A stretch of DNA of 31,922 nt from a virus (IMGVR_UViG_2585427777_000013), one strand, 5' to 3'; positions 21,870 through 27,338 are shown, counted from the first letter of the stretch. Made by a program: numbers and translations. Notes: generated by a model not told the origin, from the letters alone.

Positions 21870-22301
21870 TCACAGATGATTCTCCAGACGAAGGCCCAGA
21901 ACACCGGCAATCTCTTCCAGCACCTTGCGCTCTTCCGGCTCTATTTCGCCGTCTGCTTCGGCAATGGCCACCGCCACATCCAGCACGTCTTCCGCTTCAC
22001 GCGTATCGTGTTTCACATCCTCGATCTCACGTAACGCCGCTCGACGACCAATTTTAAAGTTCGTATCCAGCTGACCGATAATGGTTGCGCTAATCGCATT
22101 AATTTCTGACGTAAACGCGGACAACGCAGGCTGGTTACGCAAGACCTGCTCGATCTTCGCTTTCTCTGAAGCCTCACATTCACCATCTGCATAGGCCACC
22201 AGATAGGCAGCATTAATAACCGCCTGTGCCAGATCACGTTTCTCAAACTTTTTAATTTCCACTGCCGCTCGGCGGGCTTTTTTACCAAAAATACCAAACA
22301 T
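21870..22301 (-). CDS. TerB-domain protein (tellurite-resistance TerB-like)
   Basis: Two ADG..E motifs (AYADGECEASEKAKIEQ and AEADGEIEPEERKVLEEIAGVLGL) typical of TerB; start at the internal ATG with AAGGA ribosome-binding site. Confidence 0.6.
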   Translation of the reverse strand: MFGIFGKKARRAAVEIKKFEKRDLAQAVINAAYLVAYADGECEASEKAKIEQVLRNQPALSAFTSEINAISATIIGQLDTNFKIGRRAALREIEDVKHDTREAEDVLDVAVAIAEADGEIEPEERKVLEEIAGVLGLRLENHL

Positions 22302-22433
22302 CGTGACGTTCCTTTGGGTGGGTGAGCCAACGCCCGGGAGCGATCTGCCCACAGAGAAAGTCACACTGACCACTCCGTAAGCTCACCCCCGAAAGGCTCT
22401 GTGGTTGATATGCGCCGGGCGTGGCGCGGATAC

Positions 22434-22471: not shown

Positions 22472-22548
22472 TGGCGCGTTGTACTGGATTCGAACCAGTG
22501 ACCGATTGCTTAGAAGGCAATTGCTCTGTCCGGCTGAGCTAACAACGC
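22472..22548 (-). tRNA. argO: tRNA-Arg, anticodon UCU
   Basis: Hand-folded cloverleaf: acceptor GCGUUGU/ACAACGC, D-arm GCUC..GAGC, anticodon stem AUUGC/GCAAU with loop CUUCUAA, T-arm ACUGG-UUCGAAU-CCAGU, encoded CCA. Confidence 0.85.
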
Positions 22549-22561
22549 AGGATACAGATAA

Positions 22562-22638
22562 TGAACCGCCTTCGGGGACCCGAACTCCGCGCAACCAGCT
22601 TCGAAGGCTGGCGCTCTTTCCTGATGAGCTAATGGCGG
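22562..22638 (-). tRNA. argN: tRNA-like gene, anticodon loop CUUCGAA (UCG, Arg); imperfect, possibly degenerate
   Basis: Perfect D-arm and anticodon arm (CCAGC-CUUCGAA-GCUGG), but an A-A mismatch in the acceptor stem, an A-C mismatch in the T-stem, T-loop UUCGGGU (G at position 58) and UCA instead of CCA at the 3' end. Confidence 0.45.
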
Positions 22639-22645
22639 TATGTGA

Positions 22646-22721
22646 TGGTGGCCCTTGCTGGATTTGAACCAGCGACCTGGCGATTATGAGTCGCTCGCTC
22701 TCACCACTGAGCTAAAGGGCC
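22646..22721 (-). tRNA. ileZ: tRNA with anticodon CAU, most like tRNA-Ile2 (lysidine, reads AUA); Met not excluded
   Basis: Hand-folded cloverleaf closely resembling E. coli ileX: acceptor GGCCCUU/AAGGGCC, anticodon loop CUCAUAA, T-arm GCUGG-UUCAAAU-CCAGC, encoded CCA. Confidence 0.8.
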
Positions 22722-22749: not shown

Positions 22750-23463
22750 TCAATAATCAAGCCCTTGCCTGGATACATATCTGTCTGGCGGGAAGCCATA
22801 ATAGCGGTGAAATACAGAAATAAAGTAGGACCTGCTTGAATAACCGCATTTTTCTGCTATAGCCTGTCCATATCCATGCCGGGAACATAACATATTTACA
22901 GCAACACGCATCCGCTCTTCCAGCAACAAGCGACTGAACATGCCCCCTTCATTTTTCAGTTTTGTCTTTAACAAACTCTCACTCATATGCAACTGTAGAG
23001 CAATCGCACAAAGCGTCCAGCTTGCTGATATATCTGTCTGAATTATCGCCCTGACTTTGGCACTTATGCTGGATAAACATCCACTTAAAAACAATGACAT
23101 CCGTTCATCTGTTTCAAACAGAGACAGGCAGGCCATCATAAGAAACATATCCGTGGCCTCTCCGGAAAATCCCTGGCTGGTAATTAAAGCCGCAGCCAAC
23201 GCAGGATTGTTGGGTTCCAGCAACAGGTAAAGCGGAATGTCAGTCAGACGAGTCCTCGTCAGCTTATGCTGACTTTCCAGATATTGACTTACGACGGATT
23301 CGCTTATATCGACAATTTTAACTTTGCCATAATGCATAAGGAAAAGCTCCCTGATGCATTTGGTGGCCAGAACAACTGAGCCTGGCTTAAGTGACAACGT
23401 ATCCTTTTCAAGAAAAATATTAATTGGGGAGCAAACCATGATAACTGAACAGACAACAGCCAT
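22750..23463 (-). CDS. AraC/XylS-family transcriptional regulator
   Basis: 237 aa; C-terminal AraC-type HTH signature (..LLLEERMRVAVNML..GYGQAIAEKCGYSSRSYFISVFHRYYGFPPDRY); AT-rich; ATG start. Confidence 0.8.
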   Translation of the reverse strand: MAVVCSVIMVCSPINIFLEKDTLSLKPGSVVLATKCIRELFLMHYGKVKIVDISESVVSQYLESQHKLTRTRLTDIPLYLLLEPNNPALAAALITSQGFSGEATDMFLMMACLSLFETDERMSLFLSGCLSSISAKVRAIIQTDISASWTLCAIALQLHMSESLLKTKLKNEGGMFSRLLLEERMRVAVNMLCSRHGYGQAIAEKCGYSSRSYFISVFHRYYGFPPDRYVSRQGLDY

Positions 23464-23596: not shown

Positions 23597-23794
23597 TCAG
23601 GACTGAAGGCGTCTGTAACAACCGCACTGATAGTCTGCCAGACCCACCATAACAAGCTGGGTCAGTATTAACTGGCAGCGTTCGCGTGAAAGGTAAGTAT
23701 TCTGCGCAATCTCCCCGACGGTCGCCGGTTCGGTGACGCTTAATTCATTAAACACCACTCTGGCGGTTTCTGTCATATCCTGCTGTTTTAGCAT
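23597..23794 (-). CDS. Small putative HTH DNA-binding protein
   Basis: About 65 aa from an internal ATG (MLKQQDMTETARVVFNELSVTEPATVGEIAQNTYLSRERCQLILTQL); the longer track ORF begins at a TTG; divergent from the DUF262 gene. Confidence 0.35.
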   Translation of the reverse strand: MLKQQDMTETARVVFNELSVTEPATVGEIAQNTYLSRERCQLILTQLVMVGLADYQCGCYRRLQS

Positions 23795-23913
23795 GTCTTT
23801 TTCCCTTTTCCGGTTAACGTGACACACCAATAACTCTTGTCGAAAAAGCCAGCAAGCTGAAAGACAGGTATTCGCAACCACCAGCACGTTTAACGTACTG
23901 CGCCGTTTTTCGG

Positions 23914-23937
23914 ACACAAAAAACCGCCTGGCGGCGG
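23914..23937 (-). terminator. Weak terminator-like hairpin on the minus strand in the HTH/DUF262 intergenic region
   Basis: Minus-strand CCGCC-gcca-GGCGG followed by TTTTTTTG; stem is only 5 bp. Confidence 0.3.
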
Positions 23938-24047
23938 GTTTAAGCTGTGTGGCGTAGTAACCACTCTTAACACGATATAATATTTTTTGCGTACGCGTTA
24001 TAGTTTTCTTACAATCTATTTCCAACTCCAATTAAAGGAACAGTGAT

Positions 24048-25205
24048 ATGACCACACTCAAAGAACTCAAAGAAGAGCTTGCTCAGATTCAAGATGAAAA
24101 CGCGAAAAATAGAAAAAAAGCTGAAATTGCAGCCTTGGTCACTTCTGCCGACAACGAGATTAGGCTTGCTCAGAGAAATATTGGATACAACGTACGTGAA
24201 TGGACCGTTGAATTAATTGTACAAAAGTATGGCAATAATCTTGAAACTGACAAAAACGAACTTTTTATTCCTGATTATCAACGCGATTACAAATGGGATA
24301 TCAAAACAGCCTCTCGATTCATCGAAAGTATATTATTAGATTTTCCAATCCCGTACCTCTACATCTCCGACGTATTTAATGAAGATCCTGAGTTGGATGG
24401 TCGTGTAGAAATTATTGACGGTTCACAAAGGATTCGCTCAATTTACTACTTTTGGAACAATCAGTTTGAATTGAAAGACTTAAAAGAACTCAAAAGTTTA
24501 GAGGGCTTCAAATTTTCAGATCTTTTGGCTAGCCGCCAGAGGCGATTTTTAAGGGCATCACTAAGATTTATTGAATTGAAAGGTGATGTTGAGGAGCAAC
24601 ATAGAAGAGATTTATTCGAAAGAATAAATTCAGGTGTTAAGAGACTGGAAGCGATGGAGGTTAGACATGGTTCAGATGCGGCCACTTCAATTTTCTATAG
24701 GGATGTTGTGACTCCTTGCTCAACAAATCCACTTTTCGCTAGTCTAGCTCCATTATCAGACCGGAAACGTTCGAATGGCGATCATCGTGAGTTAGTTTTG
24801 AGATTTTTTGCATACTTAAATGATTTAGAAAATTATAAGGGTTATGTCGCTCCTTTTATTGACAATTATCTTAATGTTCAGGCCGAAAGGGTCACACAAC
24901 AAGATGTAGACAAATTTAAACATGATTTTGAAAGCATGCTTGCTTTTGTAGATGCTCATTTCCCTATGGGGTTTAAAAAGACACCAACAAGCAAAACCAC
25001 CCCCCGTGCTAGATACGAAGCCATAGCAGTGGGAACTGCTCTTGCCTTAAAAGCCAATCCACATCTACAGGCTCCGGTTATTCCTGTAGGAGACTGGCTG
25101 TTTGGGGAGGAATTTGAAACCATAGTTACTGCTGATAGTGCCAACAACACCAGCCAACTCAAAAACAGAATATTTTATGTCAAAGATAAATTATTAGGAA
25201 TGTAA
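24048..25205 (+). CDS. DUF262 (ParB/GmrS-like NTPase) domain protein with no recognisable nuclease domain
   Basis: 385 aa; DUF262 hallmarks IPDYQRDYKW and IIDGSQRIRSI, plus ..DLFERINSGVKRLEAMEV..; AAGGAA ribosome-binding site; AT-rich; plus strand, opposite to the phage backbone. Confidence 0.8.
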   Translation: MTTLKELKEELAQIQDENAKNRKKAEIAALVTSADNEIRLAQRNIGYNVREWTVELIVQKYGNNLETDKNELFIPDYQRDYKWDIKTASRFIESILLDFPIPYLYISDVFNEDPELDGRVEIIDGSQRIRSIYYFWNNQFELKDLKELKSLEGFKFSDLLASRQRRFLRASLRFIELKGDVEEQHRRDLFERINSGVKRLEAMEVRHGSDAATSIFYRDVVTPCSTNPLFASLAPLSDRKRSNGDHRELVLRFFAYLNDLENYKGYVAPFIDNYLNVQAERVTQQDVDKFKHDFESMLAFVDAHFPMGFKKTPTSKTTPRARYEAIAVGTALALKANPHLQAPVIPVGDWLFGEEFETIVTADSANNTSQLKNRIFYVKDKLLGM

Positions 25206-25207
25206 CT

Positions 25208-25897
25208 ATGAGTTTGATTGATTTAAGAGATGAATACGAAGAAAGAGCAAGAGATATTATGGAATTGCTTTCTCTTGCGTCATCTTTAGAGGCTCAGACT
25301 CAGCAGTTAGATCAGCAAACGCATAAAGATGAAATAGAATCAAATACCCTTAGGGTTAACATTTTAAAATCATCCGTGCACATGATGCTGTACAATCAGG
25401 TTGAAAACACTGCCAGAGGATGCATTGAGTCAATTTATGACCATTTGCAAGATAATGAAGTAAATTACGCATCACTCAGGGAGAAATTCCAAGTAAATAT
25501 CTTGCACCGTATCATTTCAGATAATGAATCGGGAAAATCTCTTTATCAAAAAATTGGTTCCGATATATCTAAAAGGATCATTTCAGCCTCATTAAACATA
25601 CGTAAAGAATTCAATGGTAATGTTTGCAAGTCTGTATTGCACAAAATAACACAAGCTTACGGAATAACTGTTGCAAACTCACCAGAGTGTAGAAATGGTG
25701 TTGACTTAGATTTACTTAAAGATATCAGAAATGAGCTGGCACATGGAAGTACCAGCTTTTCTAAAAAAGGTCAAATAGACCCTTTAGAAGAAGTCAAATC
25801 GAGGTCAGAAAGAATTGATCTATATTTGCGTTTATTAATCAACTCAACAGAAAATTATATTACCTCTAACGGGTATTTATCCCCTCAACATGTCTGA
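25208..25897 (+). CDS. Predicted HEPN-domain protein (R-x4-H motif), partner of the DUF262 gene
   Basis: 229 aa; C-terminal LKDIRNELAHGSTSF contains R-x4-H; ATG 2 nt after the DUF262 stop with AGGA ribosome-binding site; predicted helical. Confidence 0.6.
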   Translation: MSLIDLRDEYEERARDIMELLSLASSLEAQTQQLDQQTHKDEIESNTLRVNILKSSVHMMLYNQVENTARGCIESIYDHLQDNEVNYASLREKFQVNILHRIISDNESGKSLYQKIGSDISKRIISASLNIRKEFNGNVCKSVLHKITQAYGITVANSPECRNGVDLDLLKDIRNELAHGSTSFSKKGQIDPLEEVKSRSERIDLYLRLLINSTENYITSNGYLSPQHV

Positions 25898-26906
25898 TAA
25901 ATGTTTCCCCTATTATCTGACCAATTATAGGGGGAACAGCATTTCCAATCATTGTCCCCAATTTTTGGAATGAAAAAGGCGTCTCCTTGTCAAGGAATTT
26001 ATAATCCATTGGAAAGGATTGCAAAATCGCAGCTTCACGCAAAGTTATGGCGCGATTTTGCTCAGGATGGCCAAATCGTCCATTTCCATATCCATAACAC
26101 TGGGTAGTTATCGTAGGGCTAGTATCGTCCCAAACCATCCGTCCATAAACGCTTTTATAGGTAGCACCTGAATTCTTTTTATGACAGTCTGCTCTAATTT
26201 CTTCAGGCCAGTCATCCCACGTACCACCAGGTAAAGAATGCATGATTCGTTTAAGATTGATATCCATCAATTTAGGCGAACGATGCAAGGGATCGCTTTC
26301 CAGCTTCTCACCTGCCCCTACTTTTGGCAACCTACCAATAGCATCCTTAACAGTAACTTTACGGCTAACTTTTTTTTGATCAAGGCTGATCGGCCCCAAT
26401 TGGGAACCAATTAGAATTAATCTACGTCTATTTTGAGGTAAGCCATACTCAGAACATCTTACAACGTCGTACCACAAATGATATCCAAGAGTCTTTAATG
26501 CACTAACAAACCCTTCAAAAACCTTATGGTTTCTAAGTTGAGGAACATTCTCCATCGTCACAAGCTCTGGCATTACATCACTTACAAGCCTTTGAAACTC
26601 ATATAACAAACGCCACTTTGTATCGTCTTTACGGCTATTTGGATTACGATACTTGGAAAACGGTTGGCAAGGAGCACATCCAGCAAGCAATCTAATATTT
26701 CCTTCCTTGAACATAGCAGACACATCGCAGGATTGCAGTTCTGTAACTGACTGATTAATGAACTGCGTTAAAGGATTATTGCTCTCAATAGCAAAACGGC
26801 AGGATTCATCAATATCAATACCATGAGAAACCTCAATCCCGGCTTTTTTTAGCCCAAAAGTTAAGCCCCCCGCACCACAAAAAATGTCTACTGCCTGAAT
26901 GTTCAC
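25866..26906 (-). CDS. DNA (cytosine-5)-methyltransferase, no restriction endonuclease gene recognised nearby
   Basis: 346 aa; motif I DIFCGAGG, motif IV GCAPCQPFS, motif VI ENV, motif VIII QNRRR; GTG start with GGAGA ribosome-binding site; 3' end overlaps the HEPN gene 3' end by 32 nt on the opposite strand. Confidence 0.9.
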   Translation of the reverse strand: MNIQAVDIFCGAGGLTFGLKKAGIEVSHGIDIDESCRFAIESNNPLTQFINQSVTELQSCDVSAMFKEGNIRLLAGCAPCQPFSKYRNPNSRKDDTKWRLLYEFQRLVSDVMPELVTMENVPQLRNHKVFEGFVSALKTLGYHLWYDVVRCSEYGLPQNRRRLILIGSQLGPISLDQKKVSRKVTVKDAIGRLPKVGAGEKLESDPLHRSPKLMDINLKRIMHSLPGGTWDDWPEEIRADCHKKNSGATYKSVYGRMVWDDTSPTITTQCYGYGNGRFGHPEQNRAITLREAAILQSFPMDYKFLDKETPFSFQKLGTMIGNAVPPIIGQIIGETFIRHVEGINTR

Positions 26907-26924
26907 AAGATTCTCCGTTACTTT

Positions 26925-26950
26925 ATCCTGGTATTATATACACATAAAAG
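26925..26950 (-). promoter_or_regulatory. Candidate promoter in the 63-nt gap between Q and the methyltransferase (extended -10-like TGTGTATATAAT); possible pR'
   Basis: Minus strand reads ..ctttcccaacttttatgtgTATATAATaccagg..; no convincing -35; position matches where pR' follows Q in lambdoid phages. Confidence 0.25.
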
Positions 26951-26969
26951 TTGGGAAAGTAGAACGATT

Positions 26970-27338
26970 TTACATAGAACTTAAGTCATTGTAGTAAATG
27001 AAAAATGACAAGCAGCCATCAATAAACCCCATTGCTGTTTGCATCTCTTTCCGTATTGTTCCATCTGAACATTTCCGTTTTTTAGCAATAGCGCGTAATG
27101 AGATACCAATAACAAAGTGAGCAATGATCAACTCATACTCTTCGGGTTTATACTTTCGCAACCGAGCCACACAACCGTCTATCATGATACCTTCGTCATC
27201 ATCACACTGGAGACGTGACTTTTTACCGTGTGGTAAAAGCCCCTTGAAGCCTGCTGCTATCGGCTGCCAGTCCACACCACTGTTATCTGCTGCAGCCCAG
27301 GCCCCCCAACGATCTAAAACTTCGTACATATCACGCAT
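26970..27338 (-). CDS. Q: Late-gene antitermination protein Q (Q82/QuuD-type)
   Basis: 122 aa, MRDMYEVLDRWGAWAA..IAAGFKGL..C.DD...I..GC.ARL.K.. resembles DLP12 QuuD as remembered; lies between replication genes and the late region. Confidence 0.7.
   Translation of the reverse strand: MRDMYEVLDRWGAWAAADNSGVDWQPIAAGFKGLLPHGKKSRLQCDDDEGIMIDGCVARLRKYKPEEYELIIAHFVIGISLRAIAKKRKCSDGTIRKEMQTAMGFIDGCLSFFIYYNDLSSM

Follow-up and report, generated by a model that had tools for sequence, protein, structure and literature searches.

Does a cytosine methyltransferase gene that stands in a prophage with no restriction endonuclease beside it serve the phage alone, or does it belong to the genes on which it converges? 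This question is raised by a stretch of viral DNA of 31,922 nt (IMGVR_UViG_2585427777_000013; hereafter the window, meaning the whole stretch analysed), in which the gene of a C5-cytosine DNA methyltransferase (the methylase) follows that of the antiterminator Q and meets, tail to tail, a HEPN-family gene preceded by a DUF262 gene on the opposite strand. A preliminary description of the locus left the choice between an independent phage anti-restriction methylase and a module of methylase, DUF262 and HEPN genes resembling a restriction-modification (R-M) system. Our results strongly support the module: the methylase is not an orphan, and it forms one arm of a compact three-gene cassette together with a DUF262 sensor and a HEPN nuclease, a cassette that travels whole among prophages, transposons and chromosomes and that is most likely an unconventional R-M-like anti-phage system.

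The linkage of the three genes carries this conclusion. The methylase was found in 107 of 5,426 complete Escherichia coli genomes (73 at at least 99% identity and 34 at ~90.5%), and the DUF262-HEPN pair was found in 107 of the same 5,426 (73 at at least 99% and 34 at ~84.6%); several of these cassette-bearing genomes are labelled O25b:H4-ST131. One genome with the second variant was examined, and it holds the cassette genes adjacent to each other and in the same layout, within a different prophage backbone. In the window, the GC content of the three genes is uniformly low (37-40%, compared with 50-56% elsewhere in the phage), and this one block is bounded by the points at which homology to phage phiP27 ends (~23978) and restarts (~27016, within the 3′ end of Q), which speaks for one acquisition. 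The proteins also diverge in parallel across homologous loci (methylase 94/80/67/64/53%, DUF262 90/82/71/68/57% and HEPN 91/69/59/48/42% identity), and the ratio of nonsynonymous to synonymous substitution rates (dN/dS) between the two E. coli variants is 0.05-0.08 for all three genes (0.08 for the methylase), so that all of them are under purifying selection. Identical counts and variant split, parallel divergence and a shared low-GC block, taken with the conservation across elements and phyla described below, are the grounds for regarding the three genes as one module.

Methylase, DUF262 and HEPN genes occur together in 46 fetched loci, and within its subfamily the methylase was never seen without the pair in these loci. 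Their settings include prophages of E. coli (two backbones), Klebsiella pneumoniae, Yersinia mollaretii and Salmonella bongori, an integrase island of Providencia, a Tn7-like transposon of Pseudoalteromonas (TnsABCDE), chromosomal islets in Vibrio cholerae and Pseudomonas putida, and 33 viral and metagenomic contigs. A metagenome scan contributed nine loci, mostly near-identical copies, and a profile search of genome contigs with the HEPN alignment returned six loci only, including a spurious one (L013). In the assembly collection, 761 blocks index the DUF262 protein of K. pneumoniae; a search of deposited phage genomes at megablast sensitivity found matches to the flanks only and none to the cassette. 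A locus of Pedosphaera (Verrucomicrobia), whose methylase is 52% identical to that of the window, carries the methylase, DUF262 and HEPN genes in this order on one strand with the gene of a Vsr mismatch endonuclease alongside, and therefore the linkage is retained even when the gene arrangement changes. Since the same cassette also sits in the Tn7-like transposon and the chromosomal islets, an independent phage anti-restriction function finds no support as the primary role of the methylase.

The methylase gene begins with GTG, with GGAG 6 nt upstream, and starts 63 nt past the stop codon of Q, so that it is indeed the first gene after Q, as had been described; RefSeq annotates the same coding sequence and already names all three cassette proteins. 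In addition to the Pfam match given in Table 1, the protein matches TIGR00675 dcm (E 6e-35) and the PADLOC models MTase_II (1.6e-87) and DrmMII (4e-85, full length). The four motifs listed in the preliminary description (FCGAGG, PCQ, ENV and QNRRR) were all recovered as motifs I (F9-C-G-A-G-G14), IV (P79-C80-Q81), VI (E119-N-V121) and VIII (Q158-N-R-R-R162), and together with motif X (GNAVP) they are invariant in a 10-sequence alignment of the window protein and nine relatives, down to 51% identity; motifs I, IV, VI, VIII, IX and X follow each other in the canonical order of PF00145. A target motif could not be assigned, as the matches in the PDB (DNMT1, HaeIII, HhaI) reach the catalytic core only and NCBIfam gives the dcm superfamily only. 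Note that a methylome paper on ST131 holds no 5-methylcytosine (m5C) data, nor does it report the window methylase in its strain EC958. The absence of a classical restriction endonuclease was also borne out, as the neighbouring open reading frames (ORFs) gave no nuclease family in Pfam or PADLOC. The matches of the window proteins to their families are far stronger than chance would give.

The active-site motifs are intact in both partner proteins, as in the methylase. The best PADLOC match of the DUF262 protein is NsnA (5.6e-46, residues 16-313), followed by PD-T4-2_A (4.3e-27), and its DGSQR and YQR motifs are invariant in 30 homologues. Its AlphaFold2 model reaches a mean predicted local distance difference test score (pLDDT) of 83; the nearest PDB folds found with Foldseek were BrxU (best, E 0.019), SspE and CTP-bound ParB, all weak, and the BrxU and SspE matches run through the N-terminal domain. 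The C-terminal half is helical and confidently modelled, and it gave no structural match with Foldseek. A Pfam search yielded GmrSD_N only, with no DUF1524 and no nuclease domain. The HEPN protein belongs to the MAE_28990 family of the HEPN superfamily by its PF18737 match and its R-x4-6-H motif, which is present as R174-N-x3-H179 (RNELAHG) and is invariant in nine homologues, down to 41% identity; its AlphaFold2 model, built on nine sequences, is all-helical with low confidence (pLDDT 57). The HEPN ORF begins 2 nt after the DUF262 stop codon, the two genes forming a translationally coupled pair.

Table 1. Positions of the cassette genes, of Q and of the candidate expression signals, counted from the first letter of the window.
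Feature	Coordinates	Strand	Remarks
C5-cytosine DNA methyltransferase, 346 aa	25866-26906	-	PF00145, E 9.5e-54, residues 4-336
HEPN_MAE_28990-family protein, 229 aa, proposed effector nuclease	25208-25897	+	PF18737, E 3.8e-16; PF18735, E 6.7e-8
DUF262/GmrSD_N (ParB-like NTPase) protein, 385 aa, proposed DNA sensor	24048-25205	+	PF03235, E 1.1e-25
Tail-to-tail overlap of the HEPN and methylase genes	25866-25897		32 nt, from ORF coordinates
Q antiterminator, Q21/933W family	26970-27338	-	PF06530, E 3.3e-47; directly upstream of methylase
Candidate -10 (TATAAT) of the methylase promoter	26933-26938	-	26 nt upstream of GTG; predicted
Candidate DUF262-HEPN promoter (TTGCGT - 17 nt - TACAAT)	23987-24015	+	Back to back with pR′; predicted
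Late promoter pR′	23917-23977	-	-10 TATCGT (+ strand 23972-23977); predicted start ~23965; first hairpin and T-run 23937-23917
Two terminator-like hairpins 3′ of the methylase stop	25734-25785	-	Antisense within the HEPN coding region; putative function

The convergent overlap with the HEPN gene had been given as 32 nt, and the ORF coordinates agree. In other loci the overlap measures 32, 35, 35, 38, 35, 13, 59 and 4 nt, and it does not exist in the co-directional Pedosphaera locus. Relatives of the methylase at 54-58% identity, which share the target-recognition region as well as the catalytic core, also lie convergently, with overlapping 3′ ends, against two other modules. One of these (Azotobacter and Pseudomonas; L018 5995-11047, L019 5995-11035) consists of Vsr, PLD, DUF1998/MZB and a ~1,330-aa helicase-like protein, a layout resembling class 2 DISARM, and the other (L021 6047-8044) is a 665-aa GHKL ATPase (HATPase_c_3). 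One methylase clade therefore serves several restriction-like modules, and overlapping 3′ ends seem to be a general means of compacting such cassettes, with nothing specific to HEPN about them. As for the pair itself, distant DUF262-HEPN copies (42-44% and 25-28% identity) in Alcanivorax, Hydrogenophaga, Brachymonas and Pseudoxanthomonas sit between a 1,376-aa adenine methylase of the Eco57I/MmeI type and a ~1,330-aa Helicase_C protein (L008 1423-11559; L009 155-10071), in what looks like a larger methylase-linked system bearing the same pair. Such a pattern is typical of a self-marking methylase module whose non-classical restriction partners can be exchanged.

The position next to Q had led to the prediction that the methylase is expressed constitutively from the late promoter in the lysogen, and this prediction failed on the location of pR′. 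In the Sakai prophage Sp5, the sequence TTTACG-16 nt-TATCAT stands directly after Q; counting the start at 7 nt past the -10 (position 1046 of L016) up to the end of the tR′ T-run (1303) gives 258 nt, which is exactly the length of StxS as mapped by dRNA-seq and Term-seq (PMC7547250). The initial transcribed region of Sp5, TAAGAGTGGTTAC...CCCGCCG..GCGGGTTTTT, is homologous to window 23905-23977 (- strand), equivalent blocks exist in phiP27, Stx2a_1447 and a second E. coli prophage, and it is this homology to a mapped promoter region that identifies the -10 given for pR′ in Table 1. Following phage transcription, the pR′ homologue is reached ~1.9 kb past the methylase stop codon, and it lies downstream of all three cassette genes. 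Moreover, pR′ is constitutive but its transcripts halt at tR′ unless Q is present (PMC7547250; 10.1101/651190), so that they end early in lysogens. The cassette fills the slot between Q and pR′, and for this reason the methylase is not a late gene; control by pR′ and Q was considered and rejected, as a lambdoid late gene would stand past pR′ and its terminator. In Stx2a_1447, the cargo is only 21 nt away from the Q stop codon, which leaves no room there for a pR′ directly after Q.

Instead, the methylase is probably transcribed from a promoter carried by the cassette itself. The region of its candidate -10, GTATATAATA, is kept in the E. coli, S. bongori, Y. mollaretii and K. pneumoniae loci despite diverged flanks, and a -10-like hexamer stands at a similar distance from the methylase in those of Providencia, V. 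cholerae and P. putida. On the other side of the cassette, the TTGCGT-17 nt-TACAAT arrangement is kept in four loci with + strand cargo and is lost in phiP27, where the cargo is on the other strand; the back-to-back promoters may represent a phage-supplied expression site for any inserted cargo. An 8-bp palindrome, GCGTACGC, is present between the + strand candidate promoter and the pR′ -10 (23965-23977, - strand). Transcripts are predicted to begin near 26926 (-) for the methylase and near 24022 (+) for DUF262-HEPN. The terminator scan listed no terminator-like site between Q and the methylase, which makes read-through from the early operon into the methylase on induction plausible. It had also been argued that no terminator can separate the methylase and HEPN genes; intergenic space is indeed absent, but terminator-like hairpins are found on the methylase strand inside the HEPN coding region. 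One of them (25757-25734) was listed by the terminator scan, and the fold of 25720-25865 (- strand) reaches -38.7 kcal/mol (z = -4.4), with no shuffled sequence folding as well. A bidirectional terminator within the 32-nt overlap was sought and none was found, the downstream fold on the + strand not being significant (z = -1.75).

How might such a cassette work? We consider it probable that a methyl mark labels self, that the DUF262 protein senses the methylation state and that the HEPN protein executes. The methylase, from its own promoter, would methylate a motif on host and prophage DNA, and the ParB-like NTPase would read the methylation state, either by detecting unmethylated invader DNA or by taking the self mark as a licence. 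SspE uses self modification (phosphorothioate) in this latter way. The DUF262 protein would then control the HEPN nuclease, which would cleave nucleic acid, so that either the phage is halted or the infection aborted. Once the prophage is induced, read-through past Q out of the early-right operon might, speculatively, raise methylase transcription, and the same transcript would run antisense through DUF262-HEPN, perhaps protecting the replicating prophage from its own system. A fuller combination of these ideas, in which self and non-self are told apart on DNA by a ParB-type NTPase reading methylation, killing is done on RNA by a HEPN RNase (through abortive infection or transcript destruction), and the conserved placement between Q and pR′ couples induction to a rise in methylase and antisense silencing of DUF262-HEPN, thus solving prophage autoimmunity, is doubtful as a whole.

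Several points weigh against the self-marking model. HEPN domains are usually RNases, so DNA restriction would be an unexpected chemistry here. The candidate promoters are predictions with poor -35 elements; a consensus promoter scan listed neither that of the methylase nor that of DUF262-HEPN, the methylase TATAAT being missed because it has no recognisable -35. A Q homologue adjoins the methylase in every phage-borne copy sampled, a Q21-family Q lying 67-130 nt upstream (L004-L007, L015, L024-L026, L029-L061), and the identity of Q to that of the window (100, 90, 81, 74%) drops together with that of the cassette, Q being present in S. bongori only as a frameshifted remnant. Q, cassette and pR′ may travel jointly as one mosaic module, and since all phage-borne copies carry a co-diverging Q, they may descend from a single insertion, in which case their uniform orientation is weak evidence for selection. 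The literature searched held no experimental characterisation of the cassette. Furthermore, the DUF262-HEPN system PD-T4-2 was cloned and is active in K-12 without any methylase (PMC9519451), so such a pair need not require self-marking, and the characterised DUF262 enzymes GmrSD and BrxU attack modified DNA, which is the opposite polarity (PMC10952713).

Among the other explanations, an unlikely one is a guard or back-up role comparable to that of PrrC with EcoprrI, in which a HEPN RNase would be kept latent by DUF262 and/or the methylase and released when a phage inhibits methylation or restriction (through anti-restriction proteins or depletion of S-adenosylmethionine), leading to abortive infection and not to restriction of unmethylated DNA. 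HEPN RNases within R-M operons have been proposed as second-line suicide effectors (PMC3710099), and the intact R-x4-H motif, the translational coupling across the 2-nt gap and the several different effector modules with which the methylase clade pairs are all in keeping with this role; however, the cassette offers no first-line nuclease that the RNase could guard, and PD-T4-2 is a working two-gene system without a methylase. Polarity might also be that of Type IV enzymes, with DUF262-HEPN attacking modified DNA (m5C or hydroxymethylcytosine, hmC) as GmrSD and BrxU do, and the methylase modifying a motif that the pair does not recognise or serving another purpose. BrxU and SspE are the nearest folds to that of the DUF262 protein, modified cytosines are the targets of GmrSD and BrxU (PMC10952713), and PD-T4-2 was selected on T4, whose DNA carries glucosyl-hmC (PMC9519451), yet an obligatorily linked m5C methylase would make self-targets and strict co-inheritance would be left without a reason; the cassette also lacks DUF1524, the defining nuclease domain of GmrSD-type enzymes. 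We therefore regard this polarity as improbable, and the self-marking, R-M-like polarity fits the obligatory linkage better.

The least credible explanation, which we hold to be very improbable, is an orphan phage methylase, used for anti-restriction 'vaccination' or epigenetic regulation, that merely lies beside an unrelated DUF262-HEPN defence system. Phages often carry orphan methylases, phiP27, the Stx2 phages and the second E. coli prophage possess a further DNA methylase a few genes downstream, the window gene points the same way as the early operon and directly follows Q, and PD-T4-2 shows that a DUF262-HEPN pair can act alone. Against this, the genome counts (107 and 107) and the variant split are identical, the three proteins diverge in parallel, the triad is kept outside phages (in the Tn7-like transposon, the chromosomal islets and the Pedosphaera operon), and none of the 46 loci shows a methylase of this subfamily without the pair, so that of all the rivals this one is the most clearly contradicted by the linkage data.

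With the self-marking cassette retained as the preferred reading, its genomic setting can be described. The window represents an E. coli prophage of the lambdoid, phiP27-like type, which is read on the minus strand; the prophage of strain MLI109, which is 99.8% identical to it over the 3.9 kb queried, is integrated beside a tyrosine integrase and a DUF72 gene next to yecN. In phage direction, replication genes, DnaB, a small ORF, Q (assigned to the Q21/933W family from 10.1101/651190) and the methylase are followed by HEPN and DUF262 on the opposite strand and by the conserved hairpin block; then come a 65-aa ORF resembling a winged helix-turn-helix (wHTH) or TrmB protein, an AraC-family gene, three tRNAs, a TerB-like gene and a SASA/NanS-type esterase, with the lysis genes next according to the annotation of the near-identical MLI109 prophage. 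The wHTH/TrmB-like ORF (23597-23794, -), the first past pR′ and the first hairpin, has ~90-93% nucleotide identity in phiP27 and many Stx2 phages, matches ~1,900 E. coli genomes and is followed by terminator-like hairpins at 23610-23593 and 23570-23543. The AraC-family regulator (22750-23463, -), just upstream of the tRNA cluster, stands in the slot that holds a ~350-aa DNA methyltransferase in phiP27, the Stx2 phages and the second E. coli prophage. The tRNA cluster (22472-22721, -) has a CAT anticodon (Met by ARAGORN, tRNA-Ile in RefSeq), then Arg-TCG and Arg-TCT, and matches ileZ-argN-argO, found ahead of stx in Stx phages; the place expected for stx is taken by a TerB-domain ORF (21870-22373, -), in a region where the annotation of the near-identical MLI109 has IraM.

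Lambdoid phages of the Q21/933W type have a slot of variable cargo in the segment from Q to pR′ (window 23978-27016; L002 6272-7810; L014 3932-5564). As an example, the phiP27 slot holds a 409-aa T5orf172/MUG113 (GIY-YIG-like) protein, and that of Stx2a_1447 two + strand genes (343 and 179 aa), of which the second is weakly membrane-like. A HicA/HicB toxin-antitoxin pair separates the holin gene from the pR′ side of the cassette in one K. pneumoniae prophage (L024 4007-4638), which adds to the defence-like or addiction-like cargo in the neighbourhood of the slot. The literature search found nothing specific that describes the Q-pR′ slot as a defence hotspot. Altogether, this segment, which belongs to the stx-carrying neighbourhood, serves as an exchange site for defence-like cargo whose expression does not depend on the late promoter, and the cassette it holds here is common in clinically important lineages. 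Work on the cassette would bear on whether DUF262-HEPN pairs can use a methyl mark as self label, and it would define a new m5C motif in the strains that carry it and explain barriers to phage therapy and gene transfer.

Compared with known systems, no PADLOC profile model recognised the cassette as a complete named system. With Type II R-M systems that have convergent R and M genes, it shares a compact and mobile C5 methylase facing a convergent effector, each with its own promoter, and the likely logic of self-marking versus attack; it differs by having no PD-(D/E)XK, HNH or GIY-YIG enzyme, its effector arm being a sensor NTPase with a HEPN protein. The methylase links it to class 2 DISARM through the DrmMII match and through relatives at 56-58% identity that lie beside Vsr, PLD, DUF1998/MZB and a large helicase-like protein, but Pfam and PADLOC detected no DrmA (helicase), DrmB (DUF1998) or DrmC (PLD) in the window. 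GmrSD, BrxU and SspE share the ParB-like DUF262 NTPase domain, their DGQQR-type motif being DGSQR in the window protein; their DUF1524 His-Me nuclease domain is fused, whereas the window has a separate HEPN protein and no DUF1524, fused or paired, which sets it apart from GmrSD-type Type IV enzymes. Of the three, SspE may be a better analogy for the cassette than GmrSD or BrxU.

The remaining comparisons also concern systems with a DUF262 protein. Menshen (NsnABC) provides the best PADLOC match of the window protein, NsnA, but the window has neither an NsnB ATPase gene nor an NsnC inPIN-effector gene, and a HEPN gene follows instead; the Menshen paper mentions links with solitary methylases and poses the question whether ParB-DUF262 could be directed at genomes that lack modification (PMC12065111). 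PD-T4-2, from E. coli ECOR65 (Vassallo et al. 2022), protects E. coli against T4 (PMC9519451), its supplementary tables giving coordinates but no mechanism. It shares with the cassette a DUF262 and HEPN (PF18735-type) pair, and the window DUF262 matches PD-T4-2_A; it differs in its smaller size (the two ORFs take up ~1.5 kb) and in its activity with no methylase present, whereas the window shows no PD-T4-2_B match at E <= 0.01 (PADLOC) and its methylase is obligatorily linked. The kind of cassette is nevertheless known computationally, the literature searched holding no experimental account of it: an association of MAE_28990 HEPN, ParB (DUF262) and DNA methylase genes was described by Anantharaman et al. 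2013 (PMC3710099) in one table line, without mechanism, experiments or phage context. The window cassette is an instance of this association, with the HEPN family PF18737, a DUF262/ParB partner and a DNA methylase in the same neighbourhood, as are the 46 related loci, the four distant loci having an adenine methylase instead. What is new relative to the 2013 description is the convergent overlapping architecture, the methylase clade, the mobility of the cassette and its location between Q and pR′.

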